Below, in pieces: positions 10,513-52,729 of a stretch of DNA of 64,000 nucleotides. Under the pieces are notes generated by a model that was not told the DNA's origin, did not search any database, and saw only the letters and a list, made by a program, of their open reading frames with translations. The stretch's first letter is position 1; each line of letters starts with the position of its first letter. The DNA lies in assembly GCF_053078305.1 (NCBI RefSeq), contig NZ_CP166879.1, one strand, 5' to 3'. Both the position numbers and the translations under genes were made by a program.

Positions 10513-12146
<1,634 letters not shown>

Positions 12147-22289: not shown

Positions 22290-22290
22290 A

Positions 22291-23176: not shown

Positions 23177-23182
23177 AACATT

Positions 23183-24735: not shown

Positions 24736-24761
24736 AAAACCAGCCAACTGAACTAGCTGGT
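24733..24761 (-). terminator. Intrinsic terminator after cdiI
   Basis: On the minus strand, stem CCAGC / GCTGG with an 11-nt loop followed by U7, 10 nt after the cdiI stop. Confidence 0.5.
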
Positions 24762-24770
24762 AGTTAAAGT

Positions 24771-34000: not shown

Positions 34001-34525
34001 CTCCAGCGCCTGCAGGCTGCCGTCGGCATTCATCACAGGTTTGCCTGTGGTGAGCGTCGCGTGCGGCGTGTTGATAAAGCCACAGCCGTCACAGGTGATA
34101 CCATACGGGTTGGCAACCATCACATTCGCCGCTTTGCCGGCCACTTCCGTATAGCCCTGCAGCAGTGAACGCTTACCGCCGGTCACTTCGTTGATGATAC
34201 CCTTCGCTTCCCCGCCCGCTTTCAGGTTCGGGTTATTCTGTATCAGTCCACCAAGCTGCGTCGGATTAAGCTTACCGGTGGCATTATTGAGAATCAGCCC
34301 TTCCTTCCCGACGTTGTAATCCGTAAACCGGTTATGCGAAATCCCGGCCCCGTCCGGCGTGGCAATGTTCACGACCGGCACACCATTTGCCGCTTTATCC
34401 ATTCCGGCCCCGTTTTGTGGGGTGATGACGGCCCCCACAGCCGGTAACAACGGCTGCCCGGCGATAATTGTACTGATAAGGTAACTCAGCAGGCGGTAAG
34501 TGAAGCGAACAGGAGGCTGATGCAT
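25031..34525 (-). CDS. cdiA: Contact-dependent growth inhibition exoprotein CdiA (two-partner secretion, 3164 aa)
   Basis: N-terminal extended signal peptide and TPS domain; long Gly/Asn/Thr/Ser-rich filamentous repeat region; pretoxin region ending GRNSAENN (AENN in place of VENN) followed by a ~230-aa CT. Confidence 0.95.
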
Positions 34526-36418: not shown

Positions 36419-36825
36419 AGACATCAAAAAAATGTCAAAAACGTGATCTTTCTTCAGCTTTTCAGAATATTGAGTACCAGGAGTTCAATATCAATTCTGG
36501 GACACATATGCATTTACCATTAAAACCGGGCACAACAAGCTGTTCAGTCTCAATCCATACCCCGTGTTTTATCAATATCAGAATAAGAATATCTGCGGAT
36601 AAATAAAAAAGGAATGTCGAGGGAGCTTACCGCAGAGGGCTCTCCACCTCACAAGCCATTTACAAAAATGATACCGGCATATCTTTGGTCCCTGTCACAA
36701 CCAGACATTGACAATCCAATATAACCCCAAATATATTTCGGGTAAGAAGTCTGGGATTTATACAGATATACTGTCTGTTATTACTATTTAATTATATAAT
36801 TGTATTACATACATAAGAGGCACTA

Positions 36826-37215
36826 ATGAAACGTTATATAAAATGGTTTGCCATCACAATTTTTATCAGTATGTTGAGTGCCTGTGCCCGTACGGCCCCA
36901 GTGCAACAGATAAGCACCACTGTCAGTGTGGGTCATACTCAGGAGCAGGTTAAAAATGCCATTTTGAAAGCAGGTGCGCAGCGCAAGTGGATTATGACGC
37001 AAGTGTCCCCTGGAGTTATTAAAGCTCGCTATCAAACACGAAATCACGTTGCAGAGGTTCGTATTACATATACAGCTACCTACTATAACATCAAATATGA
37101 CAGTAGCCTGAATCTGCAGGCTTCTGATGGAAAAATTCATAAAAACTATAACCGCTGGGTGCGTAACCTGGATAAAGATATACAGGTTAACTTATCTACA
37201 GGAGCAACGTTATAG
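36826..37215 (+). CDS. Lipoprotein (lipobox LSAC), function unknown
   Basis: 129 aa; N-terminus MKRYIKWFAITIFISMLSAC; divergent from cdiB, upstream of the aryl-polyene cluster. Confidence 0.6.
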   Translation: MKRYIKWFAITIFISMLSACARTAPVQQISTTVSVGHTQEQVKNAILKAGAQRKWIMTQVSPGVIKARYQTRNHVAEVRITYTATYYNIKYDSSLNLQASDGKIHKNYNRWVRNLDKDIQVNLSTGATL

Positions 37216-37279
37216 TGATGCTGATATCGGGCTGGAATGGCCCGATAGTATTTAACTTTCTCTATAAGAATGGTTATAT

Positions 37280-38338
37280 ATGTACGAACAGGACACGCTC
37301 AGCGCACTGGATGCCATCACCGAAGCACAGCGGATTGCCTTTGCTCCTATGCTTTTCCAGGCAGCTTTGTGCCTGCGCAATGCAGGAATATTAGATTATT
37401 TGGATCAACAGGGTAAACAGGGAGCTCCCCTTAATGCGATTACTGAGCACACAGTCCTGAATGAATATGCCGTGGGTGTGTTACTGGATATGGGCTTAAG
37501 CGGGCGAATTATTACCTGTAAAGAGGGAATTTATTACCTGGCGAAAATCGGTCATTACCTCCTGCATGACACTATGACTCGCGTGAATATGGATTTCACC
37601 CAGGATGTCTGTTACCAGGGGCTCTTCTTCCTTGCCGATTCACTCAATGAAGGAAAACCTTCCGGGTTAAAAGTATTTGGCGACTGGCCGACGATATATC
37701 CGGCACTTTCGCAATTACCAGACGCCGCACGTGATAGCTGGTTTGCGTTTGATCATTACTATTCAGATGGCGCATTTAACGCCGCACTGCCTTATGTATT
37801 CGCCAACAACCCCACAACCTTGTACGATGTGGGTGGCAATACGGGTAAGTGGGCTTTGCGCTGCTGCAAATTCAATGAAAACATCGCCGTTACGTTATTA
37901 GATCTGCCACAACAAATCGTACTGGCGAAAGAAAATATCGCGAATGCAGGTTTTTCTGATCGCATAGATTTCCATGCGGTGGATATGCTAAGCGATGCCC
38001 CATTACCAGGCGAGGCTGATATCTGGTGGATGAGCCAATTTTTAGACTGTTTTTCACCCGAACAAATAATTAGCATACTCAGCAAAATTGCCAGCGTAAT
38101 GAAGCCTGGCGCAAAACTTTGCATCATGGAGTTGTTCTGGGATGCACAGCGGTTTGAAGCGACATCGTTTAGCCTGAATGCATCCTCACTTTATTTTACC
38201 TGCATGGCAAACGGTAACAGCCGTTTCTATAGTGCAGAGAAATTTTACGACTATCTGAATAAAGCAGGATTCCAGGTAGCAGAGCGTCACGATAATTTAG
38301 GCGTTGGGCATACACTTTTGATATGCCAAAAGAAATAA
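37280..38338 (+). CDS. SAM-dependent O-methyltransferase (aryl-polyene cluster)
   Basis: 352 aa; class I methyltransferase motif LYDVGGNTG; first gene of a co-directional 17-gene block. Confidence 0.8.
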   Translation: MYEQDTLSALDAITEAQRIAFAPMLFQAALCLRNAGILDYLDQQGKQGAPLNAITEHTVLNEYAVGVLLDMGLSGRIITCKEGIYYLAKIGHYLLHDTMTRVNMDFTQDVCYQGLFFLADSLNEGKPSGLKVFGDWPTIYPALSQLPDAARDSWFAFDHYYSDGAFNAALPYVFANNPTTLYDVGGNTGKWALRCCKFNENIAVTLLDLPQQIVLAKENIANAGFSDRIDFHAVDMLSDAPLPGEADIWWMSQFLDCFSPEQIISILSKIASVMKPGAKLCIMELFWDAQRFEATSFSLNASSLYFTCMANGNSRFYSAEKFYDYLNKAGFQVAERHDNLGVGHTLLICQKK

Positions 38339-38378
38339 TCGTCACTTAATAATTTTGGTTTACCGCGGGCGCGCGTTG

Positions 38379-39101
38379 ATGAAATTTGCATTAAATATTA
38401 CCAACTGGCAGGCACTGGCGCCTGGACTTAGCGATGTGCAGCAATGGCAAGCATGGTCGCGCCAGCCGTGGGCGATTGACCCTGCCGCGCCGTTGGCAAA
38501 ATTAAGTGAACTGCCAATGATGACCGCCCGTCGTCTCAGTTCAGGCAGCAAACTGGCTGTTGAATGCGGTCTGACAATGCTACGCCGCCATCAGCCAGAC
38601 GCTGTTTTGTATACCAGTCGTCATGGCGAACTGGAGCGCAATTACCGCATTGTTCATGCACTGGCAACCGAACAGGCGCTTTCTCCGACGGACTTCGCGC
38701 TTTCCGTACACAACTCTTCCGTGGGTAACCTGACCATTGTGGCCAAACAGCCGATCGTTTCGTCATCGCTTTCGGCTGGTCGCGACAGTTTCCAGCAAGG
38801 TTTGTGTGAAGTGCTTAGCCTGCTACAGGCGGGATACCAGCGCGTGTTGATGGTCGATTTTGATGGCTTTCTGCCTGAGTTCTATCATCCACAACTGCCC
38901 GCAGAAATGCCGACCTGGCCGTACGCCGTCGCGCTGGTGATTGAAGCTGGCGATGAGTGGCAATGTGAAACGCAGTCAGCCATTGCGGGTAATGAAACAA
39001 CACTGCCGCAAAGCATGTTGTTTTTACAGCACTATTTACAAAATGCGGACACATTTTCACTGCCTGGCGAGCGCGTACAGTGGCGCTGGAGCCGTGGATG
39101 A
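38379..39101 (+). CDS. Ketosynthase-like chain-length-factor protein
   Basis: ATG at 38379 (MKFALNITNW...); about 240 aa; ORF-track start at 38355 is an extension. Confidence 0.6.
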   Translation: MKFALNITNWQALAPGLSDVQQWQAWSRQPWAIDPAAPLAKLSELPMMTARRLSSGSKLAVECGLTMLRRHQPDAVLYTSRHGELERNYRIVHALATEQALSPTDFALSVHNSSVGNLTIVAKQPIVSSSLSAGRDSFQQGLCEVLSLLQAGYQRVLMVDFDGFLPEFYHPQLPAEMPTWPYAVALVIEAGDEWQCETQSAIAGNETTLPQSMLFLQHYLQNADTFSLPGERVQWRWSRG

Positions 39102-39919
39102 GTAAGCTGATGTCACGTCTGGAGTGGACCTGGCGACTGGTCATGACCGGGTTATGTTTTGTCCTGTTTGGTCTCGGCGGCCTGCTGCTTTCAGTCGTGT
39201 GGTTTAACATATTGTTAGTTTTGGTGTGGGATACTTCCCGCCGCCGTCGTTTGGCACGTCGCAGCATTGCCGCCAGTTTTCGCCTGTTTTTAACTGTCGC
39301 GAAAGGGCTTGGCGTGCTGGATTATCGTATTGATGGCGCTGAAATTTTACGTCAGGAACGCGGTTGCCTCGTCGTAGCCAATCATCCCACGCTGATCGAT
39401 TACGTGCTGCTGGCATCAGTCATGCCAGAAACTGACTGCCTGGTGAAAAGCGCGCTGTTAAAAAATCCTTTTCTTGGCGGCGTCGTGCAAGCGGCAGATT
39501 ATTTAATCAACAGCGAAGCTGAAACCCTGTTACCCCGCTGCCAACAGCGACTGGCACAGGGTGACACTATCCTGATTTTCCCCGAAGGCACACGAACGAA
39601 GCCCGGTGAAAAAATGACGCTGCAGCGCGGTGCAGCGAATATTGCCGTGCGCTGCACCAGCGATTTACGCATCGTGACGATCGGCTGTAGCGAGCATCTG
39701 CTGGATAAACAAAGTAAGTGGTATGACGTCCCGCCTGCCAGGCCGTTTTTTACGGTTGAAGTCCATGGGCGGGTAGAAATCAATAAATTTTACGATGCAA
39801 CTTCACAAGAGCCGACGCTGGCTGCAAGACAGTTAAACCGGCATCTTTTGCTTCAATTACAGCAAGGTTGTTTACCTCTCTCAGGAATAAATAATGCAAG
39901 CGCTTTATCTGGAAATTAA
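39098..39919 (+). CDS. Lysophospholipid acyltransferase (PlsC family)
   Basis: ATGA overlap with the previous gene; motifs NHPTLIDYV and FPEGTRT. Confidence 0.75.
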   Translation: MSKLMSRLEWTWRLVMTGLCFVLFGLGGLLLSVVWFNILLVLVWDTSRRRRLARRSIAASFRLFLTVAKGLGVLDYRIDGAEILRQERGCLVVANHPTLIDYVLLASVMPETDCLVKSALLKNPFLGGVVQAADYLINSEAETLLPRCQQRLAQGDTILIFPEGTRTKPGEKMTLQRGAANIAVRCTSDLRIVTIGCSEHLLDKQSKWYDVPPARPFFTVEVHGRVEINKFYDATSQEPTLAARQLNRHLLLQLQQGCLPLSGINNASALSGN

Positions 39920-40151
39920 AAACCTCATCATCAGCACCCTCAATCTGGACGACTTGACTCCTGATGATATTGATATCAATGCGCCACTGTTTGGCGACGG
40001 TTTAGGGCTGGACTCTATCGATGCACTGGAACTGGGACTGGCAGTAAAAAATGAGTACGGCATCGTGCTCTCTGCGGAAAGCGAAGAAATGCGTCAGCAC
40101 TTTTTCTCCGTCGCCACTCTGGCCTCTTTCATTGCTGCGCAACGTGCCTGA
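39894..40151 (+). CDS. Acyl carrier protein
   Basis: 85 aa with the phosphopantetheine-site motif GLDSIDALEL. Confidence 0.8.
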   Translation: MQALYLEIKNLIISTLNLDDLTPDDIDINAPLFGDGLGLDSIDALELGLAVKNEYGIVLSAESEEMRQHFFSVATLASFIAAQRA

Positions 40152-40162
40152 GGAAAACCATC

Positions 40163-40414
40163 ATGACAGACCAACAAACCATTTATCAGGAAGTCTCAGC
40201 CCTGCTGGTTAAGCTGTTTGAAATCGATCCGCAGGACATCAAACCTGAAGCGCGACTGTACGAAGATCTGGAACTGGACAGCATCGACGCCGTTGACATG
40301 ATTGTGCACCTGCAAAAGAAAACCGGTAAGAAAATCAAGCCGGAAGAGTTTAAAGCAGTGCGTACAGTCCAGGATGTTGTCGAGGCTGTAGAACGCCTGC
40401 TACAAGAAGGCTAA
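40163..40414 (+). CDS. Acyl carrier protein (second copy)
   Basis: 83 aa with LELDSIDAVDM. Confidence 0.8.
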   Translation: MTDQQTIYQEVSALLVKLFEIDPQDIKPEARLYEDLELDSIDAVDMIVHLQKKTGKKIKPEEFKAVRTVQDVVEAVERLLQEG

Positions 40415-40418
40415 TTTG

Positions 40419-41000
40419 ATGTCGGGCATTCGCTCGCTACCAATGATTAAGTTGCTGACCGGATTATTGCTGCTCGCCTGGCCTTTTTTAATCTGGCTAG
40501 GTTTGGTGCATAACAGCCTGCACTGGCTGTTGCCGCTGATGGCGCTGCTGCTTTTATTGCGCCTGCGCCAGCCCCGTCGCCAGACGGGGCCGCTCCAGGT
40601 CGTCACAAAAATCGTTGCTGTTGTGGGCATTGTATTGTGTGTCTCCAGTTTTCTGTTGAAAACGCACCAGTTACTGCTGTTTTACCCGGTAGTGGTTAAC
40701 GCAGTCATGCTGGCGGTTTTTGGCGGTTCGCTGCGGTCGACAATGCCGATAGTTGAGCGGCTGGCACGTTTGCAGGAGCCAGACCTCCCGGAAAAGGCCG
40801 TGCGATATACCCGCCGCGTAACGCAGGTCTGGTGCCTGTTTTTTATTTTCAATGGCAGTATTGCGTTATTTACCACCTTGTATGGCAACATGCCCTTGTG
40901 GACAGCCTGGAACGGTATCATTGCTTACCTTCTGATAGGTTTCCTGACTGCAGGGGAATGGCTGATACGTTGTCAGATGATCAAACGGAAAACACCATGA
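40419..41000 (+). CDS. Integral membrane protein (aryl-polyene cluster)
   Basis: About 193 aa, mostly hydrophobic. Confidence 0.6.
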   Translation: MSGIRSLPMIKLLTGLLLLAWPFLIWLGLVHNSLHWLLPLMALLLLLRLRQPRRQTGPLQVVTKIVAVVGIVLCVSSFLLKTHQLLLFYPVVVNAVMLAVFGGSLRSTMPIVERLARLQEPDLPEKAVRYTRRVTQVWCLFFIFNGSIALFTTLYGNMPLWTAWNGIIAYLLIGFLTAGEWLIRCQMIKRKTP

Positions 41001-42355
41001 ATCAGACTCTCTCACTTTCACAGTGGTTGACAGCCTCTCGCCCTGTAACAACTCCTGTTGCCTGGCTTGGGGAATATACCTGGACACTGGGGCATCTGCG
41101 GCATGATGTAGCGCTTTTGATCGACCATTTACGCGACCAGCCAGGCAATCGCTGGGCACTTTGTTTTGAAAACAGCTATCTTTTTATTGTAGCGTTGTTG
41201 GCCACGCTACACTCAGGTAAAATCCCGGTAATCCCGGGCCATAATCGCGCCGCTTTGTTAAATGTACAACGCTCCTTGTTTGATTGCGTCCTGAGTGATA
41301 AAAGGCTGGGCTGGAACGGTCCACAGTTTGTTGTAAGCACATCTCACCAGATGACGACCAGCACGATAGCCTTTGATGATATTGCTTCTGATGCGTTTAT
41401 TGAACTTTTCACATCGGGTTCAACCGGACAACCAAAACAAATTGCAAAACCTGTTATCAGCCTTGATCAAGAAGCAAACATGCTGGCAACTCACTTTGCA
41501 GACCGACTACTGGGCTGTCGTTTTGTAGCATCCGTGATGCCTCAGCACCTGTATGGGCTGACTTTCCGTATTTTTTTACCCATGGCACTTGGCCTGCCAT
41601 TGCATGCCGCAATGCTCTGGTATTCTGAGCAACTTGCCGCATTAAGCCATACCTACCGCTATGCCTTTGTCAGCAGCCCGGCGTTCCTTAAGCGACTCGA
41701 CCTTCATCTGACGCCTCCCCCAGTGGAAATGATTCTCTCTGCCGGCGGTATGCTACCATGGCAGGATGTAGAGAAAACTTCCACCTGGCTGAATATATGG
41801 CCCGATGAAATCTATGGTAGTACCGAAACAGGTATTCTCGCATGGCGTTACCGTCAACAGGATAATATCCCCTGGTTTACTTTTTCTGATGTTCATCTTT
41901 CACAGGAAAGTGAGGGGGTTCGTGTCTTTTCGCCACTAATCCCTGCTGAAGGATTGGTGCTTGACGATATGTTGCAATTCAATGAAAACGGTCAGTTCCA
42001 CCTGATCGGACGACGTGGTCGAGTGGTAAAAATAGAGGAGAAGCGGATATCACTGGTTGAAATCGAACAACGACTTCTGGCACTTGACGGTATTATGGAT
42101 GTCGCTGCAATACCATTAATACGCAATGGCCGCCAGGCTATCGGTGTCGTGGTTGTACCAAATAAAGAGGCCCGTCAAATATGGCAATGCTCCGGAGGGA
42201 AAACTCTGGAGTTGTCCTGGCGCAAAGCACTATTACCATGGCTTGAACCTGTTGCAGTACCTCGTTACTGGCGCATTATTGATGAAATACCAGTAAACAA
42301 TATGAATAAGCGTGTCTATGCGCAATTACAGGAGTTATTTCATGATACGCCATGA
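40997..42355 (+). CDS. AMP-dependent synthetase/ligase (acyl-activating enzyme)
   Basis: ATG at 40997 overlaps the preceding stop (ATGA); adenylation motif TSGSTGQPK; ORF-track start at 40832 is an extension. Confidence 0.75.
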   Translation: MNQTLSLSQWLTASRPVTTPVAWLGEYTWTLGHLRHDVALLIDHLRDQPGNRWALCFENSYLFIVALLATLHSGKIPVIPGHNRAALLNVQRSLFDCVLSDKRLGWNGPQFVVSTSHQMTTSTIAFDDIASDAFIELFTSGSTGQPKQIAKPVISLDQEANMLATHFADRLLGCRFVASVMPQHLYGLTFRIFLPMALGLPLHAAMLWYSEQLAALSHTYRYAFVSSPAFLKRLDLHLTPPPVEMILSAGGMLPWQDVEKTSTWLNIWPDEIYGSTETGILAWRYRQQDNIPWFTFSDVHLSQESEGVRVFSPLIPAEGLVLDDMLQFNENGQFHLIGRRGRVVKIEEKRISLVEIEQRLLALDGIMDVAAIPLIRNGRQAIGVVVVPNKEARQIWQCSGGKTLELSWRKALLPWLEPVAVPRYWRIIDEIPVNNMNKRVYAQLQELFHDTP

Positions 42356-42695
42356 AATTGAGCGCCATCTGGTTCAACCGCAGGAGATGGAAATCGTTCT
42401 ATACCTTGACCCGATGCTCTACTGGTTTAATGGTCATTTTGCCGTACAGCCTCTGTTACCAGGCGTGGCCCAATTGGACTGGGTAATGCATTATGCTACC
42501 ACGCTGCTTGCTCCGGGCTGGCGTTTTCGTAGTATCCAGAATGTTAAATTTCTGGCGCCACTTATACCTGAGACGACTGTTACCCTGCAATTAACATGGC
42601 AGGAAACAAGTCAGGTACTCACTTTCTGCTATCAGCGTCACGACGGTGACGCCCGCCACACCGCCAGTAGCGGGAAGATCCGCCTATGTCGGTAA
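42342..42695 (+). CDS. Hot-dog fold 3-hydroxyacyl-ACP dehydratase-like protein
   Basis: About 117 aa; start at ATG 42342. Confidence 0.6.
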   Translation: MIRHEIERHLVQPQEMEIVLYLDPMLYWFNGHFAVQPLLPGVAQLDWVMHYATTLLAPGWRFRSIQNVKFLAPLIPETTVTLQLTWQETSQVLTFCYQRHDGDARHTASSGKIRLCR

Positions 42696-44362
42696 ACTTT
42701 TCTCCCTGCGTGTTGATACCCTGCTACAACCACGGCGCGATGATGCCGGGCGTGCTGGCGCGTCTTAAGCCATTTAATCTGCCCTGTATTGTGGTGGATG
42801 ACGGCAGCGATGCCACCACACAACAGCAACTGGACAGTCTGCTTGCCGAACAGCCTGGCGTGACCTTAATTCGCCTGGCAGAAAACGCAGGCAAAGGCGC
42901 GGCGGTGATGCGTGGCTTACAGGCAGCGGCAGACGCAGGGTTCAGCCATGCGGTGCAGGTGGATGCTGACGGTCAGCACGCGATTGAAGATATCCCTAAA
43001 CTGCTGGCACTCGCTGAACAACAACCTGCGGCACTGATCTCCGGCCAGCCAATTTACGATGACTCCATCCCCCGCTCACGGCTTTACGGGCGCTGGGTCA
43101 CCCACGTTTGGGTATGGATCGAAACGCTCTCCCTGCAACTGAAAGACAGCATGTGCGGCTTTCGCGTTTATCCGGTTGCGCCAACGCTGCAACTGGCAAA
43201 ACACGCCACCATCGGCAAGCGGATGGATTTCGACACTGAAGTGATGGTGCGCCTCTACTGGCAGGGAAACACCAGCTATTTCGTGCCGACCCGCGTCACC
43301 TATCCACTGGACGGGCTTTCGCATTTTGATGCCCTGAAAGATAACGTCCGCATCTCGCTCATGCACACGCGTCTGTTTTTCGGCATGTTACCGCGTATTC
43401 CTTCACTGCTGATGCGCCGCTCTTCCAGCCACTGGGCGCGGCAGAGTGAAGTGAAAGGATTATGGGGAATGCGCCTGATGCTGCTTGTCTGGCGTCTGCT
43501 GGGAAGAACGGCGTTTAGCGCGCTGCTTTACCCGGTGGTGGGCGTCTACTGGCTCACTGCTTCTCGTGCGCGCAAAGCGTCGCAAGACTGGCTCGCCCGT
43601 GTACGACAGCATCAACCACAGGCGGCAAAACTCAACAGCTATCAGCACTTTCTGCGTTTCGGTAATGCCATGCTCGACAAAATCGCCAGCTGGCGCGGCG
43701 AGCTACAACTGGGGCGTGATGTGCTGTTTGCGCCAGGCGCAGAAGCGGCGCTTGACGTCCGCGATCCGCGCGGCAAATTGCTGCTGGCCTCGCATCTTGG
43801 CGATGTGGAAGTGTGCCGGGCGCTGGCAAAAATTCAGGGCTACAAAACCATTAACGCGCTGGTGTTTAGCGAAAACGCCCAACGCTTTAAACAGATAATG
43901 CAGGAGATGGCTCCTCAGGCAGGCATTAACCTGATGCCGGTAACAGATATCGGCCCAGAAACCGCCATCCTGCTGAAAGAGAAGCTGAATAACGGCGAAT
44001 GGGTGGCGATTGTCGGTGACCGCATCGCCGTCACCCCGCAACGCGGCGGCGACTGGCGCGTCTGCTGGAGTCCGTTTATGGGCCAGCCTGCGCCCTTCCC
44101 ACAGGGGCCGTTTATTCTCGCCTCTATTTTGCGCTGCCCAGTGAATCTGATTTTCGCCCTACGCCAGCACGGCAAGCTGCATATTCACTGCGAAACCTTT
44201 GCCGACCCGCTGCTGTTGCCGCGTGGCGAACGCCAACAGGCGCTGCAAAACGCTATCGACCACTACGCCGCGCGTCTGGAACATTACGCGCTCCAGTCGC
44301 CCCTCGACTGGTTTAATTTTTTCGATTTCTGGCAACTGCCGGAAATTCAGGACAAGGAGTAA
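42686..44362 (+). CDS. Family-2 glycosyltransferase fused to an LpxL-like acyltransferase
   Basis: 558 aa; N-terminal GT2 signature (PCYNHG..., VVDDGSDATT); C-terminal lipid A acyltransferase-like domain. Confidence 0.7.
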   Translation: MSVNFSPCVLIPCYNHGAMMPGVLARLKPFNLPCIVVDDGSDATTQQQLDSLLAEQPGVTLIRLAENAGKGAAVMRGLQAAADAGFSHAVQVDADGQHAIEDIPKLLALAEQQPAALISGQPIYDDSIPRSRLYGRWVTHVWVWIETLSLQLKDSMCGFRVYPVAPTLQLAKHATIGKRMDFDTEVMVRLYWQGNTSYFVPTRVTYPLDGLSHFDALKDNVRISLMHTRLFFGMLPRIPSLLMRRSSSHWARQSEVKGLWGMRLMLLVWRLLGRTAFSALLYPVVGVYWLTASRARKASQDWLARVRQHQPQAAKLNSYQHFLRFGNAMLDKIASWRGELQLGRDVLFAPGAEAALDVRDPRGKLLLASHLGDVEVCRALAKIQGYKTINALVFSENAQRFKQIMQEMAPQAGINLMPVTDIGPETAILLKEKLNNGEWVAIVGDRIAVTPQRGGDWRVCWSPFMGQPAPFPQGPFILASILRCPVNLIFALRQHGKLHIHCETFADPLLLPRGERQQALQNAIDHYAARLEHYALQSPLDWFNFFDFWQLPEIQDKE

Positions 44363-44365
44363 AGG

Positions 44366-44788
44366 GTGCTTAACGATCCCCGATTTACCGCTGAAGTCGA
44401 GCTGACCATTCCCTTTCACGACGTCGATATGATGGGCGTGGCCTGGCACGGTAACTATTTTCGCTACTTTGAAGTGGCCCGCGAGGCGCTGCTCAACCAG
44501 TTCAATTACGGCTATCGGCAGATGAAAGAGTCCGGTTATTTGTGGCCAGTGGTCGATGCGCGGGTGAAATATCGCCACGCCCTCACCTTTGAGCAACGCA
44601 TCCGCGTGCGTGCGCATATCGAAGAGTTCGAAAACCGTCTGCGGATTGGCTATCAGATTTTCGATGCCGAAACGGGCAAACGCGCCACCACCGGATACAC
44701 CATTCAGGTCGCGGTCGACGAGCAAAGCCGCGAACTGTGCTTTGTCAGCCCCGATATTCTGTTTGAACGCATGGGAGTCAAATCATGA
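44366..44788 (+). CDS. Hot-dog fold acyl-CoA/ACP thioesterase (4HBT family)
   Basis: 140 aa; GTG start. Confidence 0.65.
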   Translation: MLNDPRFTAEVELTIPFHDVDMMGVAWHGNYFRYFEVAREALLNQFNYGYRQMKESGYLWPVVDARVKYRHALTFEQRIRVRAHIEEFENRLRIGYQIFDAETGKRATTGYTIQVAVDEQSRELCFVSPDILFERMGVKS

Positions 44789-45390
44789 AATTTTTACCGC
44801 TGCTGGCGCTGCTGATTAGCCCGTTTGTGAGCGCCCTGAGCCTGGACGATCTTCAGCAACGCTTTACCGAACAGCCGGTGATCCGCGCCCATTTCGATCA
44901 AACCCGGACGATTAAAGATCTGCCGCAGCCGCTGCGATCTCAGGGCCAGATGTTGATCGCCCGCGACCAGGGGCTGTTGTGGGATCAAACCTCACCGTTC
45001 CCCATGCAACTATTACTGGACGATAAACGCATGGTGCAGGTGATCAACGGTCAGCCGCCGCAAATCATCACGGCAGAAAACAACCCGCAGATGTTCCAGT
45101 TTAACCACCTGCTGCGCGCGCTGTTCCAGGCCGATCGCAAAGTGCTGGAACAAAACTTCCGCGTCGAATTTGCTGACAAAGGCGAAGGCCGCTGGACGCT
45201 GCGCCTGACGCCGACCACCACGCCGCTGGATAAAATTTTCAACACCATCGATCTCGCCGGGAAAACCTATCTGGAGAGCATTCAACTTAATGATAAACAG
45301 GGCGATCGCACCGATATTGCTCTTACCCAACATCAACTGACGCCAGCGCAACTGACCGATGACGAACGCCAACGTTTTGCCGCCCAGTAA
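44785..45390 (+). CDS. LolA-like outer-membrane lipoprotein carrier protein
   Basis: 201 aa with signal peptide MKFLPLLALLISPFVSA. Confidence 0.65.
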   Translation: MKFLPLLALLISPFVSALSLDDLQQRFTEQPVIRAHFDQTRTIKDLPQPLRSQGQMLIARDQGLLWDQTSPFPMQLLLDDKRMVQVINGQPPQIITAENNPQMFQFNHLLRALFQADRKVLEQNFRVEFADKGEGRWTLRLTPTTTPLDKIFNTIDLAGKTYLESIQLNDKQGDRTDIALTQHQLTPAQLTDDERQRFAAQ

Positions 45391-47677
45391 ACGCCCCGCG
45401 CTGTTATGGGGGCTAGTCTGCCTGGTCATGGCGGCGGCGTTGCTGATCCTGCTGCCGCAATCACGGCTGAACAGTAGCGTGCTGGCTATGTTACCCAAAC
45501 AGGCGATGGGCGATATTCCCCCAGCGCTGAATGACGGCTTTATGCAGCGTCTGGACCGCCAACTGGTGTGGCTGGTCAGCCCCGGTAAAGAGGCTAATCC
45601 CAGGGTCGCTCAGGAGTGGCTGACGCTGCTGCAAAAATCCGCTGCGCTCGGCGACGTTAAAGGACCAATGGATGCCGCCAGCCAGCAAGCGTGGGGAGCG
45701 TTTTTCTGGCAGCACCGCAACGGCCTGATTGACCCCGACACCCGCGCCCGCCTGCAAAACGGTGGCGAAGCGCAGGCGCAGTGGATCCTCTCCCAGCTTT
45801 ATTCCGCATTCTCCGGGGTAAGCGGCAAGGAGCTGCAAAACGATCCGCTGATGTTAATGCGCGGCTCGCAGCTGGCGATGGCGAAAAACGGCCAGCGTTT
45901 GCGGCTGATGGACGGCTGGCTGGTGACGCAGGATCCCCAGGGCAACTACTGGTATCTGCTGCACGGTGAACTGGCGGGATCGTCGTTTGATATGCAGCAA
46001 ACCCACCAGCTCATCACGACCCTGAATACGCTGGAAAAGGATCTGAAAACGCGTTACCCACAGGCGCAGTTGCTCTCGCGCGGCACGGTATTTTACAGCG
46101 ATTACGCCAGTCAACAGGCGAAGCAGGATATCTCAACCCTGGGCGTGGCAACGCTGCTGGGGGTGATATTGCTGATTGTGGCGGTGTTCCGCTCTTTACG
46201 CCCGTTGCTACTTTGCGTGATTTCCATCGGCATCGGCGCACTGGCAGGAACGGTCGCCACATTGTTGATTTTCGGCGAATTACACCTGATGACGCTGGTG
46301 ATGAGCATGAGCGTTATTGGCATTTCCGCTGACTACACGCTCTATTACCTCACCGAACGAATGGTGCACGGCAACGACGTTTCACCGTGGCAAAGCCTGG
46401 CGAAAGTGCGCAATGCCCTGCTGCTGGCGCTGCTCACCACCGTGGCGGCGTATCTGATTATGATGCTCGCCCCCTTCCCCGGCATTCGCCAGATGGCGAT
46501 TTTTGCCGCCGTCGGGTTGAGCGCCTCCTGTCTGACCGTCCTGTTCTGGCATCCGTGGCTGTGCCGTGGCCTGCCGGTGCGTCCGGTTCCGGCGATGGCG
46601 CTGATGCTACGCTGGCTGGCAGCGTGGCGGCGCAATAAAAAACTGTCGCGGGGTCTGCCCGTCGTGCTGGCGCTGTTTTCGCTGGCGGGGATGTCAATGC
46701 TGCGCGTCGATGACGATATCTCGCAGTTACAGGCGCTACCGCAGCATATTCTGGCCCAGGAGAAAGCCATCACCGCTCTGACCGGGCAGAGCGTCGATCA
46801 AAAATGGTTCGTGGTTTACGGCGACTCCCCACAGCAAACATTGCGGCGACTGGAGAAATTTACCACCTCGCTGGAGAATGCGAAAAAAGAGGGGCTTATC
46901 AGCAACTACCGCACCATTCCGCTGAACTCCCTGGCGCGGCAGGAGGAAGATTTACATCTGCTGACAACAGCGGCCCCGACAGTAACAAAAGCACTGCAAA
47001 ATGCCGGGCTGACAACAGTGAACCCGGATCTCAACGCCATGCCAGTGAACGTTGATGAATGGCTGGCAAGCCCCGCCAGTGAAGGCTGGCGTCTGCTGTG
47101 GCTGACGCTGGAAAATGGCGCAAGCAGCGTGCTGGTGCCGGTTGAAGGGGTTAAAAATAGCGCGGCGCTACAGGAAATCTCCAGCTATTACCCTTGTGGC
47201 ATTGCCTGGGTTGATCGCAAAAACACCTTTGATGAATTGTTCGCACTTTACCGTTATGTGTTAACCGGCTTGTTGCTGGTGGCGTTGGCAGTAATTGCCT
47301 GCGGCGCAGTGGCCCGCCTCGGCTGGCGAAAAGGGTTTATCAGCCTTGTACCTTCGGTGCTTTCGCTGGGTTGTGGTCTGGCGGTGCTGGCGATGAGCGG
47401 GCAGGCGGTGAATCTCTTTTCGCTGCTGGCGCTGGTGCTGGTGCTTGGCATCGGCATCAACTACACGCTGTTTTTCAGTAATCCGCGCGGCACACCATTA
47501 ACTTCGCTACTGGCGATCACGCTGGCAATGCTCACCACCTTGCTGACGCTGGGAATGCTGGTATTCAGCGCCACCCAGGCCATCAGCAGTTTTGGCATTG
47601 TGCTGGTGAGCGGTATTTTCACCGCCTTCCTGCTTTCGCCGCTGGCGATGCCCGATAAAAAGAGAACAAAAAAATGA
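45359..47677 (+). CDS. MMPL/RND-family membrane exporter
   Basis: 772 aa with two clusters of transmembrane helices. Confidence 0.75.
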   Translation: MTNANVLPPSKRPALLWGLVCLVMAAALLILLPQSRLNSSVLAMLPKQAMGDIPPALNDGFMQRLDRQLVWLVSPGKEANPRVAQEWLTLLQKSAALGDVKGPMDAASQQAWGAFFWQHRNGLIDPDTRARLQNGGEAQAQWILSQLYSAFSGVSGKELQNDPLMLMRGSQLAMAKNGQRLRLMDGWLVTQDPQGNYWYLLHGELAGSSFDMQQTHQLITTLNTLEKDLKTRYPQAQLLSRGTVFYSDYASQQAKQDISTLGVATLLGVILLIVAVFRSLRPLLLCVISIGIGALAGTVATLLIFGELHLMTLVMSMSVIGISADYTLYYLTERMVHGNDVSPWQSLAKVRNALLLALLTTVAAYLIMMLAPFPGIRQMAIFAAVGLSASCLTVLFWHPWLCRGLPVRPVPAMALMLRWLAAWRRNKKLSRGLPVVLALFSLAGMSMLRVDDDISQLQALPQHILAQEKAITALTGQSVDQKWFVVYGDSPQQTLRRLEKFTTSLENAKKEGLISNYRTIPLNSLARQEEDLHLLTTAAPTVTKALQNAGLTTVNPDLNAMPVNVDEWLASPASEGWRLLWLTLENGASSVLVPVEGVKNSAALQEISSYYPCGIAWVDRKNTFDELFALYRYVLTGLLLVALAVIACGAVARLGWRKGFISLVPSVLSLGCGLAVLAMSGQAVNLFSLLALVLVLGIGINYTLFFSNPRGTPLTSLLAITLAMLTTLLTLGMLVFSATQAISSFGIVLVSGIFTAFLLSPLAMPDKKRTKK

Positions 47678-48258
47678 TCAAACCTACCTTCTGGCGAGCG
47701 CTCGCCCTGACCGCTACGCTTATCCTCACCGGCTGTAGCCACTCGCAACCGGAACAGGAAGGCCGCCCGCAGGCGTGGCTGCAACCTGGCACGCGCATCA
47801 CGCTGCCGGCACCAGGGATTTCACCCGCCGTCAATTCCCAGCAACTGTTGACCGGCAGCTTCAACGGCAAAACCCAGTCGCTGTTAGTGATGCTTAACGC
47901 CGACGACCAGAAAATCACCCTTGCCGGGCTGTCGTCGGTCGGCATTCGCCTGTTTCTGGTGACCTACGATGCAAAAGGGCTACGCGCCGAGCAATCCATC
48001 GTCGTCCCACAGTTGCCGCCCGCAAGTCAGGTTCTGGCTGACGTAATGCTCAGCCACTGGCCGATTAGCGCCTGGCAACCGCAACTTCCCGCTGGCTGGA
48101 CACTTCGCGACAACGGTGACAAACGCGAACTGCGTAACGCCAGCGGCAAACTGGTCACGGAAATCACCTATCTGAATCGCCAGGGAAAACGCGTGCCAAT
48201 CAGCATTGAGCAGCATGTCTTTAAATACCACATCACCATTCAATACTTAGGTGACTGA
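47674..48258 (+). CDS. Lipoprotein (DUF3261-like)
   Basis: 194 aa; lipobox LTGC at the N-terminus. Confidence 0.6.
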   Translation: MIKPTFWRALALTATLILTGCSHSQPEQEGRPQAWLQPGTRITLPAPGISPAVNSQQLLTGSFNGKTQSLLVMLNADDQKITLAGLSSVGIRLFLVTYDAKGLRAEQSIVVPQLPPASQVLADVMLSHWPISAWQPQLPAGWTLRDNGDKRELRNASGKLVTEITYLNRQGKRVPISIEQHVFKYHITIQYLGD

Positions 48259-48259
48259 T

Positions 48260-49429
48260 ATGATTTATATTTCCGCCGTCGGCATGATCAACGCCCTGGG
48301 AAATAACCTTGACGAAATCGCAGCCAACCTAGCTCGCGGTGTCGCCCCCGGAATGCGCCCACGCGCAGGCTGGTTGCAGGGGCATCCGCAGGCGGTCCTG
48401 GCTGGCGTGGATGGCGAGCTTCCGCTTATCCCGGAAAAATTCGCTGCGCATCGCTCGCGCAACAATCAGATCCTGCTGGCGGCGCTGGCGCAGCTCCAGC
48501 CGCAGGTTGATGACGCTATAGCGAAATATGGTCGCGAGCGCATCGCGATTGTACTTGGCACCAGCACCTCCGGCCTGCATGAAGGCGACACGCACGTTAA
48601 CCTACGCACCCACGGGCAGCCGAGCACCACATGGCACTACGCGCAACAGGAACTCGGCGATCCGTCGCGTTTTCTCAGCCACTGGCTGGCGCTCGACGGC
48701 CCGGCCTATACCCTTTCAACCGCCTGCTCTTCCAGCGCCAGAGCGATAATCAGCGGGCGCAGGCTTATCGAAGCGGGGCTGGTCGATGCCGCCATTGTGG
48801 GTGGTGCAGACACCCTGAGCCGGATGCCGATTAACGGTTTTCACAGCCTCGAATCGCTGTCGCCAACCTTATGTCAGCCGTTTGGTCGTGACCGCGCAGG
48901 TATCACCATTGGTGAAGGGGCGGGGCTAATGCTGCTGACCCGGGAACCGCAGCCCATCGCGTTGCTGGGCGTTGGTGAATCGAGCGACGCTTACCATATT
49001 TCAGCCCCGCATCCGCAGGGCGAAGGAGCGATCCGCGCTATTAATCAGGCGCTGACCGATGCGCAGCTTACGCCGGATGACGTCGGCTATATCAACCTGC
49101 ACGGCACCGCCACACAGCTCAACGACCAGATTGAATCAATGGTGGTTAACGCCCTGTTTGGCGAACGCGTACCGTGCAGCTCCACCAAACATTTGACCGG
49201 ACACACGCTGGGCGCAGCGGGCATTACCGAGGCGGCAATTAGTATGTTGATTTTACAGCGTGATTTACCGCTGCCCGCTCAGGACTTCAGCCTGTCGCCG
49301 CGCGATCCCACGCTGCCACCGTGTGGCATTATCGAAAAACCGCAGCCGCTGGCACGTCCGGTGATCCTGTCCAATTCCTTCGCCTTTGGCGGCAATAACG
49401 CCAGCATTCTGCTCGGGAGGGTTTCGTGA
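48260..49429 (+). CDS. Beta-ketoacyl-ACP synthase
   Basis: About 390 aa; thiolase-fold active-site region TACSSS; start could be GTG 48251 instead. Confidence 0.8.
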   Translation: MIYISAVGMINALGNNLDEIAANLARGVAPGMRPRAGWLQGHPQAVLAGVDGELPLIPEKFAAHRSRNNQILLAALAQLQPQVDDAIAKYGRERIAIVLGTSTSGLHEGDTHVNLRTHGQPSTTWHYAQQELGDPSRFLSHWLALDGPAYTLSTACSSSARAIISGRRLIEAGLVDAAIVGGADTLSRMPINGFHSLESLSPTLCQPFGRDRAGITIGEGAGLMLLTREPQPIALLGVGESSDAYHISAPHPQGEGAIRAINQALTDAQLTPDDVGYINLHGTATQLNDQIESMVVNALFGERVPCSSTKHLTGHTLGAAGITEAAISMLILQRDLPLPAQDFSLSPRDPTLPPCGIIEKPQPLARPVILSNSFAFGGNNASILLGRVS

Positions 49430-49890
49430 GCCACTATTTATCCCCCGGCGCTTATCTGCCCCACGACGCGCCCATGTTACTGCTGGAAGACGTGGTGAGC
49501 GTCAGCGATGACAGCGCGGTGTGCCGCGTGACGGTTTCGCCCAGTGGCGTACTGGCACCGTTTCTCGACCCGGACGGCAATCTCCCTGGCTGGTTTGCCC
49601 TTGAACTGATGGCGCAAACCGTCGGCGTCTGGTCTGGCTGGCATCGCCACCAGCAGGGCAAAAACAGTATTGAGTTAGGGATGATACTGGGCGCGCGTGA
49701 ATTGCTTTGCGCCGCTGGCATTCTGCCCGCAGGCCAGACGCTGACCATTACCGTCAAACTGCTGATGCAGGACGATCGCTTCGGCAGTTTTGAGTGCAGC
49801 ATCAACGACGGCGAGGCGACGGGCCGCATTAACACCTTCCAGCCGACCGCGGAAGAACTTACCACCCTGTTTCAACAAGGAGCGTCCTGA
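49426..49890 (+). CDS. Hot-dog fold 3-hydroxyacyl-ACP dehydratase (FabA/FabZ-like)
   Basis: 154 aa; GTGA overlap with the preceding KS gene. Confidence 0.65.
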   Translation: MSHYLSPGAYLPHDAPMLLLEDVVSVSDDSAVCRVTVSPSGVLAPFLDPDGNLPGWFALELMAQTVGVWSGWHRHQQGKNSIELGMILGARELLCAAGILPAGQTLTITVKLLMQDDRFGSFECSINDGEATGRINTFQPTAEELTTLFQQGAS

Positions 49891-50621
49891 TGAGTCGTTC
49901 AGTTCTGGTTACTGGTGCCAGCAAAGGCATTGGTCGCGCCATCGCCTGCCAACTGGCGGCAGACGGCTTTAACATTGGCGTTCACTATCACCGTGACGCC
50001 ACAGGCGCTCAGGAAACGCTGAATGCCATTGTCGCCAACGGGGGTAACGGGCGTTTGCTCAGTTTCGACGTCGCAAACCGCGAACAGTGTCGGGAAGTGC
50101 TGGAGCATGAGATCGCGCAACACGGTGCCTGGTACGGCGTGGTCAGTAACGCCGGGATCGCCCGCGATGCCGCTTTTCCGGCTTTAAGCGATGACGACTG
50201 GGATGCGGTGATCCACACCAATCTCGACAGTTTCTACAACGTCATTCAGCCGTGCATTATGCCAATGATCGGCGCGCGCCAGGGTGGGCGCATCATCACG
50301 CTGTCCTCGGTTTCCGGCGTAATGGGCAATCGCGGCCAGGTGAATTACAGCGCTGCCAAAGCCGGAATTATCGGCGCAACAAAAGCGCTGGCTATCGAAC
50401 TCGCAAAGCGCAAAATCACCGTCAATTGCATCGCGCCAGGGCTTATTGATACCGGGATGATCGAAATGGAAGAGAGCGCTCTGAAAGAGGCAATGTCGAT
50501 GATCCCCATGAAACGTATGGGCCAGGCGGAAGAAGTTGCCGGGCTTGCCAGTTATTTAATGTCTGATATTGCGGGTTACGTCACCCGCCAGGTTATTTCC
50601 ATCAACGGAGGGATGTTATGA
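49890..50621 (+). CDS. 3-oxoacyl-ACP reductase (SDR family, FabG-like)
   Basis: 243 aa; TGASKGIGRA Rossmann motif and YSAAK catalytic motif. Confidence 0.85.
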   Translation: MSRSVLVTGASKGIGRAIACQLAADGFNIGVHYHRDATGAQETLNAIVANGGNGRLLSFDVANREQCREVLEHEIAQHGAWYGVVSNAGIARDAAFPALSDDDWDAVIHTNLDSFYNVIQPCIMPMIGARQGGRIITLSSVSGVMGNRGQVNYSAAKAGIIGATKALAIELAKRKITVNCIAPGLIDTGMIEMEESALKEAMSMIPMKRMGQAEEVAGLASYLMSDIAGYVTRQVISINGGML

Positions 50622-51847
50622 CACGTCGCGTAGTGATTACAGGAATGGGTGGCGTGACTGCCTTTGGTGAAAACTGGCAGGACGTTTCTGCACGCTTACT
50701 GGCGTATGAAAATGCGGTGCGCAAAATGCCGGAGTGGCAGGTCTACGACGGGCTGCACACCCTGCTTGGCGCGCCTGTTGATGATTTCACGCTACCGGAG
50801 CACTACACCCGCAAGCGTATCCGTGCGATGGGCCGCGTGTCGCAAATGTCGACCCGTGCCAGCGAGCTGGCGTTAGAGCAGGCAGGGTTGATTGGCGATC
50901 CGATATTAACCAGCGGCGAAACGGGCATTGCGTACGGTTCATCGACCGGCAGTACCGGCCCGGTAAGCGAGTTCGCCACCATGCTGACGGAAAAGCACAC
51001 CAATAACATCACTGGCACCACCTATGTGCAGATGATGCCGCACACCACCGCCGTTAATACTGGCCTCTTTTTCGGCCTGCGCGGGCGGGTGATCCCAACC
51101 TCCAGCGCCTGTACTTCCGGCAGCCAGGCAATCGGTTATGCGTGGGAAGCCATTCGCCACGGTTATCAAACGGTGATGGTTGCTGGTGGTGCCGAAGAGT
51201 TATGTCCTTCAGAAGCAGCGGTATTTGATACGCTTTTCGCCACCAGCCAGCACAATGATGCGCCGAAAACCACACCTTCACCGTTCGATGAAAACCGCGA
51301 CGGGCTGGTGATTGGTGAAGGCGCAGGTACGCTCATTCTCGAAGAACTGGAGCACGCCAAAGCGCGCGGCGCGACCATTTACGGTGAAATCGTCGGCTTT
51401 GCGACTAACTGCGACGCGGCACATATTACCCAGCCGCAGCGCGAAACCATGCAGTATTGTATGGAGCAATCGCTGAAAATCGCCGGGTTAAGCGCACAAG
51501 ATATCGGCTATATTTCAGCGCATGGTACGGCGACCGATCGCGGTGATATGGCAGAAAGTCTGGCGACAGCAACCATTTACGGTGATAATGTGCCGCTCTC
51601 CTCGCTGAAAAGTTATTTTGGTCATACGCTTGGTGCCTGTGGCGCGCTCGAAGCCTGGATGAGTCTGCAAATGATGCGCGAAGGTTGGTTTGCGCCTACG
51701 CTAAACCTGAATAAACCAGACCCGAACTGTGGCGCGCTGGATTACATCATGCATGAAGCCCGAAAGGTTGATTGTGAGTTTTTGCAGAGTAACAACTTTG
51801 CCTTTGGCGGCATTAATACATCCATCATCATTAAGCGCTGGCCCTGA
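50618..51847 (+). CDS. Beta-ketoacyl-ACP synthase II-like
   Basis: 409 aa; KS active-site region SSACTSGS; last gene of the cluster, followed by a hairpin. Confidence 0.85.
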   Translation: MTRRVVITGMGGVTAFGENWQDVSARLLAYENAVRKMPEWQVYDGLHTLLGAPVDDFTLPEHYTRKRIRAMGRVSQMSTRASELALEQAGLIGDPILTSGETGIAYGSSTGSTGPVSEFATMLTEKHTNNITGTTYVQMMPHTTAVNTGLFFGLRGRVIPTSSACTSGSQAIGYAWEAIRHGYQTVMVAGGAEELCPSEAAVFDTLFATSQHNDAPKTTPSPFDENRDGLVIGEGAGTLILEELEHAKARGATIYGEIVGFATNCDAAHITQPQRETMQYCMEQSLKIAGLSAQDIGYISAHGTATDRGDMAESLATATIYGDNVPLSSLKSYFGHTLGACGALEAWMSLQMMREGWFAPTLNLNKPDPNCGALDYIMHEARKVDCEFLQSNNFAFGGINTSIIIKRWP

Positions 51848-52729
51848 GTTATACAACCACATGGACATCCCATGTGGTGATTCTTCAAAAAATCTGAATC
51901 AATGAATATGAACCTCATCCACATTCAACCATTCTTTTGTTTACCATCTGGTTGTCGCCCCCCCTCCAAAAAGCAAATTCTCTTACGCATACTGGAGAGT
52001 ATTCCGTATAAAGATTCAGCTGGCAAAACTTTATCAGTCTGTAAAAACTAACGGAAGAGTCGATATTTCTCCCGTCCATCACCGGATGATTGTTGCAATA
52101 ACCCATAGCATCAGAGACTGAACAGCAGTTTTTAAAGCAACGTATTGCTCTGATGTATCAGGCTGGGCAACCCGAAAAAAAACTTTCCACCCGACATTGT
52201 CCGCTAGCACTTATCACCCGCCAGGTCTGTTGCAGTAAATCCACCAGTTGTGAACATGCTTCATCACCTGTCACACTGGCTCGCGGATGGCAAATGCTCG
52301 TCTGGCTGAGCAGCAACAGGCATCGTATTGTTGCTCCTCCATGTAGTTGTTCCCGCAACCAGCGTAATACCAGCGGCGATGATGGACTGGTCGTGTGATT
52401 ACGCTCAGTAATACGTTCATAAAAGGAAGTACAGAATGCATGAATCTGTTGCCCGTTGATATTTCCTTCTGCCGAATGGAGTGTGAAGTGGACTGCCAGC
52501 AGATGCGTCCAGTGGTCCACCGCCTGCTGAACAAAACGCCGGATGTCTCCCTGCTCTGAAAATAACGCTTCGGTTATTTGCACGAAATACTACTCCTTCA
52601 GACTCTGTTAAGTTTTGTTTGTTAAATCGGTGCAGACCTGCAGGAAAGCACGCAAGCACCGGCACAGTACGATATAAACATCCGGTACCGGGGATACGAA
52701 TGGAATGACGAATACGCCAGAAAAGGGAT

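Follow-up and report, generated by a model that had tools for sequence, protein, structure and literature searches.

An apparent island-borne version of the Escherichia coli APE_Ec aryl polyene cluster beside a contact-dependent inhibition locus

Introduction

The 64,000-nt stretch of contig NZ_CP166879.1 (assembly GCF_053078305.1), referred to below as the window, contains a long block of same-strand genes at positions 36826–51847, flanked on one side by a contact-dependent inhibition (CDI) locus and on the other by a decayed sugar locus. What does this block encode, is it complete, and does its position next to the CDI genes have any functional meaning? An earlier note, made from the letters of the sequence, had read it as an aryl polyene (APE) pigment cluster. 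The comparison presented here leaves very little doubt that the interval is the E. coli APE_Ec cluster, apeA–apeR, in its island-borne version, as carried by E. coli CFT073. Earlier publications already cover the cluster itself, its product, its essential genes and its occurrence in many pathogenic E. coli.

Identity with the APE_Ec cluster of E. coli CFT073

A 16,000-nt alignment to E. coli CFT073 had a DNA identity of 98.4% with one gap, and the CFT073 counterpart was located at 1,143,727–1,158,748 (locus tags c1186–c1204, apeA–apeR). All 18 proteins were length-matched to their CFT073 homologues, with identities of 96–100%. This pairwise comparison bears out the earlier assignment to the aryl polyene class, the block being collinear with the experimentally validated APE_Ec. 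The two copies differ by 255 nucleotides and 57 amino acids, concentrated in apeC, apeJ, apeM, apeN and apeR; 191 differences are synonymous and 57 non-synonymous, giving a dN/dS of 0.09. Against the copy of E. coli O157:H7 EDL933, the dN/dS was 0.20.

The CFT073 cluster is described in Johnston et al. (2021; PMC8253772, which cites Cimermancic et al. 2014) as an "18 gene, 15.5 kb BGC" (biosynthetic gene cluster) with genes named apeA–apeR. According to the same paper, the cluster alone confers yellow aryl polyene pigment on E. coli Top10, deletions within it define the essential genes, and deletion of apeA leaves pigmentation at the wild-type level. The resemblance extends from the same genes in the same order to the flanks, with cdiB and cdiA on one side and decayed garD, DeoR and tagatose genes on the other. 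Apart from the sequence differences just given, cdiB and cdiA are pseudogenes in CFT073 and open in the window, and parts of the window apeJ and apeR match the EDL933 allele instead.

The following components of an aryl polyene pathway were found within the collinear apeA–apeR set: the ApeO and ApeC pair, ApeR, the carrier proteins ApeE and ApeF, ApeI and ApeP together with ApeQ, the ligase ApeH, and the export set ApeM, ApeL and ApeN. The phosphopantetheinyl transferase gene acpT was not found in cis, the sequence after apeR (51848–52150) being a pseudogene and not acpT. This does not argue against membership, because the CFT073 cluster is also without acpT in cis.

Gene content and organisation

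The cluster consists of 18 open reading frames (ORFs), all on the plus strand and free of internal stops (Table 1). Functions were assigned with NCBIfam models and precomputed Pfam matches. The genes are tightly packed: with start codons taken from the RefSeq annotation of near-identical E. coli genomes, neighbouring genes overlap by 1–32 nt at 11 of the 17 junctions and are 1–11 nt apart at four more, while real spacers occur only between apeA and apeB (64 nt) and between apeB and apeC (40 nt). Non-coding DNA totals about 123 of 15,022 nt, so that about 99% of the 15-kb cluster is coding.

The ORF map and the overlaps agree with the long, co-directional and translationally coupled operon that the earlier note had described, and the 17 functions it listed were all recovered by NCBIfam and Pfam in the same order. 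Its gene number needs to be raised to 18, because the lipoprotein gene that it placed between the cluster and cdiB is apeA, with which the published cluster begins; that gene does lie beside cdiB, at 36826–37215, and is no outsider, falling inside the note's own interval of 36826–51900. The start of that interval is right, and its end lies 53 nt beyond the apeR stop codon at 51847, so that it takes in the stem-loop at 51856–51878. The impression that the genes are intact was also justified, since internal stops are absent, the lengths equal those of CFT073 and the catalytic motifs are kept.

Table 1. Genes and signals of the ape cluster, with positions in the 64,000-nt window (aa, amino acids).
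Feature	Position	Strand	Description	Supporting details
Candidate promoter	36708..36737	+	sigma-70 promoter-like site, 88 nt 5' of apeA	TTGACA-18-TATATT, 11/12 consensus matches
apeA	36826..37215	+	129-aa lipoprotein	lipobox ..MLSAC (Cys20, Ala at +2)
Stem-loop apeA/apeB	37214..37257	+	core stem 37226-37233/37239-37246, followed by U-rich stretch	-16.9 kcal/mol, z = -2.75
apeB	37280..38338	+	S-adenosylmethionine-dependent O-methyltransferase family, aryl head-group methylation	351/352 aa identical to CFT073
apeC	38379..39101	+	chain-length factor, 240 aa, ketosynthase-like	PF13723; PDB 6QSP_B (X. doucetiae ApeC) E 3.5e-92
apeD	39098..39919	+	lysophospholipid acyltransferase	PF01553; 270/273 aa identical to CFT073
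apeE	39894..40151	+	acyl carrier protein	DSI serine at residue 41; NF006617 above cut-off; 100% identical to CFT073
apeF	40163..40414	+	second acyl carrier protein	DSI serine at residue 40; NF003757 146.6 bits (cut-off 65); 100% identical to CFT073
apeG	40419..41000	+	small integral membrane protein	COG4648 in RefSeq annotation; ~5 hydrophobic segments
apeH	40997..42355	+	adenylate-forming enzyme	TSGSTGQPK and YGSTE motifs; 451/452 aa identical to CFT073
apeI	42342..42695	+	hotdog-fold dehydratase subunit	PDB 6QSR_A E 3.6e-40, 3ESI E 1.8e-40; PF22818 ApeI-like
apeJ	42686..44362	+	558 aa; glycosyltransferase family 2 (GT2) domain and ~320-aa C-terminal domain	GT2 at residues 8-130 (PF00535)
apeK	44366..44788	+	4HBT/YbgC-type hotdog thioesterase	139/140 aa identical to CFT073
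apeL	44785..45390	+	LolA-like periplasmic carrier, signal peptide	TIGR00547 lolA E 1.5e-16; LolA2_flexi E 9e-15
apeM	45359..47677	+	MMPL/RND-superfamily transporter	PF03176; HAE3 and HpnN matches; ~12 hydrophobic segments (hydropathy)
apeN	47674..48258	+	DUF3261 lipoprotein	PF11659; lipobox LTGC
apeO	48260..49429	+	elongating ketosynthase, ApeC partner	PDB 6QSP_A E 8e-175; NF006618 555.9 bits (cut-off 407)
apeP	49426..49890	+	second hotdog dehydratase subunit, ApeI partner	PDB 6QSR_B E 1.9e-47; PF22817 ApeP-like
apeQ	49890..50621	+	3-ketoacyl-carrier-protein reductase FabG2	TIGR01831 476 bits (cut-off 339); PDB 4IIU E 1e-154, 7CZC
apeR	50618..51847	+	initiating ketosynthase	NF006587 778 bits (cut-off 470); PDB 7F27 (A. 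baumannii ApeR) E 5e-158, 4EWG
Stem-loop after apeR	51856..51878	+	9-bp stem, just 3' of the apeR stop	-17 kcal/mol, z = -3.0; poor U tract

Six proteins (ApeO, ApeC, ApeI, ApeP, ApeR and ApeQ) matched solved Ape enzyme structures in sequence searches of the PDB. The Cys-His-His triad of the condensing enzymes is present in both ApeO (Cys156, HGTAT at residue 281, GHTLG at residue 314) and ApeR (Cys165, HGTAT at residue 302, GHTLG at residue 335), and a motif scan found neither of the His motifs in ApeC, as expected for a chain-length factor; Ketoacyl-synt_2 was among the Pfam matches of the cluster proteins. ApeQ has the motifs of the short-chain dehydrogenase/reductase family, TGASKGIG (TGxxxGIG), NAG and YSAAK (YxxxK). 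ApeB matched the NCBIfam FlxJ-family methyltransferase with an E value of 1e-141 and the Pfam families Methyltransf_2 and Dimerisation2. The best NCBIfam match of ApeH was 4-coumarate-CoA ligase. An HX4D motif at residue 96, FPEGTR at residue 161 and one N-terminal hydrophobic helix were seen in ApeD. In the export set, ApeL matched LolA_3 (Pfam identifiers PF19574/PF03548), and ApeN is termed LolB-like in the literature (PMC8253772). ApeG matched no Pfam family, and a relaxed-threshold NCBIfam search of ApeA, ApeG, ApeN and ApeC gave nothing meaningful.

The earlier note had called ApeJ a fusion of GT2 and acyltransferase domains. Its GT2 half is clear (PF00535), and its acyltransferase half yielded only a weak match and an HX4E motif. 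The C-terminal ~320 conserved residues (43406–44362) matched a PatA-type phosphatidylinositol-mannoside acyltransferase model weakly (E 0.0013), and the motif, SHLGDVE at residue 370, is invariant in nine homologues. This half matched no Pfam family, and PDB searches with its sequence and with a profile returned only chance-level matches. The AlphaFold2 model of ApeJ had a pLDDT of 41 and is unusable, because the underlying alignment is too shallow (nine sequences with 81–98% identity). One source (JGI) labels an ApeJ homologue as "predicted LPLAT superfamily acyltransferase"; the published acyltransferase label for this half is without a curated model. The assignment made in the literature is plausible.

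Proposed pathway and host dependence

The pathway steps have been shown for orthologues, and we infer them for the window copy. Synthesis would start from 4-hydroxybenzoate, supplied by UbiC (encoded elsewhere), which would be adenylated by ApeH and loaded directly onto ApeE; before this, AcpT, an unlinked phosphopantetheinyl transferase, would have to activate the carrier proteins. ApeR would catalyse the first condensation, with malonyl-ACP (acyl carrier protein), and the ApeO:ApeC ketosynthase/chain-length-factor pair would elongate the chain with further malonyl units. After each condensation, keto reduction by ApeQ and dehydration by ApeI:ApeP would follow, leading to a conjugated hexaene, and ring methylation by ApeB would give the 4-hydroxy-3-methylphenyl head group. 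The thioesterase ApeK may help to free the finished acid from its carrier protein. ApeD and ApeJ would join the polyene and a conjugated fatty acyl derived from ApeF to a glycerol-phosphate-GalNAc (N-acetylgalactosamine) lipid, and ApeM (MMPL), ApeL (LolA-like), ApeN (DUF3261 lipoprotein) and perhaps ApeG would transport this lipid to the outer membrane, where it would scavenge reactive oxygen species and promote biofilm formation.

Much of this scheme comes from Xenorhabdus doucetiae. The steps of polyene synthesis follow in vitro work by Grammbitter et al. as related in PMC8253772, in which ApeH of this organism loads 4-hydroxybenzoate onto an ACP. The product in X. doucetiae is an aryl polyene lipid in which the polyene is esterified to GalNAc, within a GalNAc-phosphate-glycerol backbone bearing one saturated acyl and one conjugated C26:5 acyl; ApeF was proposed to serve the conjugated acyl, ApeD to put that acyl on a lysophospholipid, and ApeJ to attach first GalNAc and then the polyene (bioRxiv 10.1101/2020.12.19.423268). 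The chromophore of the X. doucetiae lipid APEL-1270 (4-hydroxy-3-methylphenyl with six double bonds) is stated there to be identical to the CFT073 product. A glycerophospholipid intermediate is seen in the X. doucetiae apeJ mutant. The aryl polyene is reported to protect cells from oxidative stress and to raise biofilm formation (PMC8253772). A cell-bound yellow aryl polyene product, yielding the 4-hydroxy-3-methylphenyl hexaene acid on hydrolysis, is established for the CFT073 and X. doucetiae clusters and may be assigned by analogy to the window copy.

Among the X. doucetiae proteins, ApeO, ApeC, ApeI and ApeP are clear orthologues of those in the window (E 2e-47 to 8e-175), the enzymes have been reconstituted in vitro with structures 6QSP and 6QSR, and the chromophore is the one made by CFT073. 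The system differs in belonging to another genus, with much lower identity, and in producing dimethylated head groups as well; the studies made there cover apeB–R only.

Neither a phosphopantetheinyl transferase gene nor a 4-hydroxybenzoate synthase gene is among the 18 genes. AcpT activates ApeE/F homologues, according to work cited in PMC8253772. Since no acpT follows apeR, the island-type copy in the window would depend on an unlinked phosphopantetheinyl transferase. E. coli normally supplies both AcpT and UbiC. The cluster can be called complete, as the earlier note did, in that all 18 ape genes are present, and only on the condition that the host provides AcpT and 4-hydroxybenzoate, neither of which is encoded within it.

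Several points weigh against a straightforward transfer of the CFT073 phenotype to the window copy. The 57 amino-acid differences and a mosaic of two alleles (see below) may bring small functional differences from CFT073. No phosphopantetheinyl transferase gene is present in the window, whereas in EDL933 acpT adjoins apeR. Support for the acyltransferase half of ApeJ, as shown above, is weak. Moreover, native expression and pigment in the strain may be low, since a preprint compared wild-type CFT073 with a constitutive APE+ strain.

Expression of the cluster

The near-consensus site upstream of apeA is a candidate operon promoter, and the cluster is probably transcribed from this promoter about 90 nt upstream of apeA, with extensively coupled translation. 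The stem-loop between apeA and apeB is a possible partial terminator, so that apeA may be partly uncoupled in transcription from apeB–apeR. A weak promoter-like site at 37187–37216 adjoins this stem-loop. The 9-bp stem-loop after apeR is a possible weak terminator; a scan for consensus terminators 3' of apeR reported none, and an Rfam scan of 34–54 kb gave no matches.

Could the cluster be intact and yet effectively silent in this strain, with no pigment or fitness effect under most conditions? We regard this as rather unlikely, albeit with some points in its favor. The X. doucetiae cluster stayed silent under laboratory conditions until a promoter was inserted (bioRxiv 10.1101/2020.12.19.423268), the NCBIfam scan found no regulator gene inside the cluster, and in CFT073 chronic H2O2 induced the ape genes only modestly, in a 2026 preprint (PMC12871727) whose APE+ strain, set against the wild type, is said to express APE constitutively. 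Against silence stand the strong purifying selection expressed in the dN/dS values given above for both the CFT073 and the EDL933 comparison, the promoter-like site upstream of apeA, and the data on CFT073 itself, in which c1186–c1204 expression rose at 37 °C relative to 23 °C and several Ape proteins also showed up in the proteome (PMC12890032).

Core-type cluster and mosaic structure

A second E. coli cluster of the same 18-gene architecture is found in EDL933, with apeJ–apeR 95–100% identical to the window. It differs in location, lying between yhhT and nikA on the core chromosome without a CDI neighbour, and in its linkage to acpT, which starts 1 nt after apeR; its ACPs are AcpT substrates. 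Four of its proteins diverge, with amino-acid identities of 66% for ApeH, 72% for ApeI, 64% for ApeA and 82% for ApeG.

At the DNA level, the window and EDL933 are 95–100% identical over most of the cluster and only about 55–70% identical from ~40800 to ~42600/42700. The divergence takes in apeH, apeI and the 3' end of apeG, and identity jumps back abruptly to 100% where apeI meets apeJ; the apeA region (36811–37310) is similarly low, at about 55–70%. Conversely, segments of apeJ (42811–43310) and apeR (50811–51310) are 99–100% identical to EDL933 and about 94.7% identical to CFT073. The window copy is thus a mosaic, CFT073-like in apeA–apeI and EDL933-like in parts of apeJ and apeR, which points to recombination between the island and core types of the cluster and to replacement of the starter-loading cassette. 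A further proposal is that the swap of apeG(3')–apeH–apeI alters the choice or loading of the starter, so that island-type and core-type strains differ in their aryl polyene lipids, and that the mosaic records an ongoing exchange between them. We consider it improbable.

Genomic context and distribution

The CDI locus next to the cluster was correctly described by the earlier note as intact: cdiB (34538–36310, 590 aa), cdiA (25031–34525, 3164 aa) and the putative cdiI are open. The last of these is an 87-aa ORF at 24771–25034 that overlaps the cdiA stop codon in the position expected for the immunity gene, and it is probably cdiI. Past it, the minus strand at 20281–25034 carries orphan toxin fragments with the VENN motif (23960–24685 and 23413–24090) and several small ORFs, an arrangement that resembles a series of orphan cdiA-CT/cdiI modules downstream of cdiA. 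On the other side, 3' of apeR, the annotation of near-identical genomes and fragment calls indicate a phage-derived gene and a DeoR regulator gene, both frameshifted, garD in fragments, and aldolase and phosphotransferase-system remnants (tagatose).

The earlier note had found it noteworthy that the cluster has an intact CDI system on one side and a decayed sugar locus on the other. The facts are right, and the arrangement is the standard island layout, being shared by CFT073 (with cdiB and cdiA as pseudogenes) and AHB1; H22 shares the cdiBA–ape side, its DNA differing beyond the pseudogene after apeR. Among 5426 complete E. coli genomes, 841 had any match to apeB–apeR and 820 were covered over at least 80% of it. 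The island-type apeA with its upstream spacer occurred in about 242 genomes, the whole cdiB–apeA junction in at least 159 and the apeR–garD junction in 124; the other ~580 genomes have the core, acpT-linked cluster type.

For the window copy itself, an exact look-up of the ApeJ protein led to contig JPQG01000001.1, which is 100% identical to window positions 32686–54362 (21.7 kb). A genome announcement names JPQG00000000 as E. coli strain 48, the reference for the subAB2-3 variant of subtilase cytotoxin found in Shiga-toxin-producing E. coli (STEC) (PMC5323612). None of the complete RefSeq E. coli genomes matched 36500–52200 at 99% or more; for apeB–apeR alone, the closest complete genome was that of strain H22 (99.0%). 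This lack of a close match, together with the low identity of the pdu segment described below, had raised the possibility of a source other than E. coli, which the 21.7-kb identity to JPQG01000001.1 speaks against; the window would accordingly derive from strain 48 or a very near relative.

An adjacency found in so many genomes raises the question of whether the ape cluster and cdiBAI form one co-regulated envelope or biofilm module, with the 515-bp intergenic region from which they diverge in common. Promoter-like sites in the cdiB–apeA spacer do face both directions, and APE expression raises biofilm formation (PMC8253772). However, cdiB and cdiA are pseudogenes in CFT073, in which the ape cluster is nonetheless functional, the core-type cluster has no CDI neighbour, and the ape genes expressed alone in a heterologous host give pigment according to the same paper. 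No evidence for a functional link between CDI and aryl polyenes was found, a literature search for such a link in E. coli having given nothing relevant. Shared descent on one island explains the adjacency sufficiently, and a common module is very improbable.

Related pigment and lipid synthase systems

The remaining alternative, a specialised cluster for fatty acids or other lipids without an aryl polyene (O-island 138 was formerly read in this way, as "fatty acid biosynthesis genes"), can practically be dismissed: most of the enzymes are indeed paralogues of type II fatty acid synthase (FabF-like, FabG2, FabZ-like, ACPs, acyltransferase) and a conjugated C26:5 fatty acyl is among the proposed products in X. 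doucetiae, but the cluster is nearly identical to one with a characterised aryl polyene product, ApeH is an adenylating enzyme of the aryl-acid type, and no ketosynthase or dehydratase protein reaches the equivalog cut-off of housekeeping FabF or FabZ. For the window copy, the scores against these models also exclude a housekeeping type II fatty acid synthase: with the fabF model TIGR03150, ApeO reached 211.8 and ApeR 353.1 bits versus a cut-off of 493.75, the fabZ models gave 20–25 bits (cut-off 113–155), and TIGR00517 (acpP) gave 24–51 bits (cut-off 70).

Flexirubin clusters of Bacteroidota and the xanthomonadin cluster of Xanthomonas resemble the window in using an aryl starter and polyene synthesis of the type II polyketide synthase/fatty acid synthase kind, as well as in LolA-like and RND export of an outer-membrane pigment. 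The window methyltransferase, reductase and LolA proteins match the flexirubin models FlxJ, FlxB and LolA2_flexi, all below equivalog level. The 18 genes differ from both systems in having no DarA/DarB dialkylresorcinol genes, no halogenase and no dedicated hydroxybenzoate synthase. A flexirubin cluster was ruled out by scores of 471.8 bits for FlxJ (cut-off 560), 266 for FlxB (340), 54.6 for LolA2_flexi (125) and only 22 bits with the DarB model.

Other features of the window

At the start of the window, positions 1–12146 carry a segment of a pdu operon, with PduG-, PduO-, PduP- and PduS-like proteins and a kinase of the acetate/propionate family. Its first 10.8 kb has only about 76% DNA identity to the pdu operons of complete E. 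coli genomes, which suggests that the window pdu represents a different, horizontally acquired lineage. The segment is followed by an IS66 TnpB gene at 12621–13067. The region at 13000–19100 is low in G+C content (41–42% at 14–18 kb), with a gene for a major facilitator superfamily (MFS) transporter at 14567–15859 and an IS4-family transposase on the minus strand at 18093–19019; it is about 92% identical to a phosphoethanolamine transferase/MFS/outer-membrane-protein region of some STEC genomes. At the far end of the window (60001–64000), the G+C content falls to 38–40%, and the DNA matches island genes of the YfjI/inovirus Gp2 type that lie beside the same locus in CFT073.

Significance

Aryl polyene lipids are reported fitness factors of pathogenic E. 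coli, in relation to oxidative stress and biofilm. An intact copy of the cluster in a Shiga-toxin-producing strain is a useful annotation and brings nothing conceptually new. The added value is modest and lies in the recurrent island architecture of CDI, ape and decayed sugar genes, in the occurrence of the cluster at two E. coli loci with acpT linked to only one of them, and in the unusually divergent apeH–apeI starter-loading cassette between these loci. Should the cassette swap alter the choice or loading of the starter, the aryl polyene lipids of the island type (CFT073 and the window) and of the O157:H7 core type would be chemically different.

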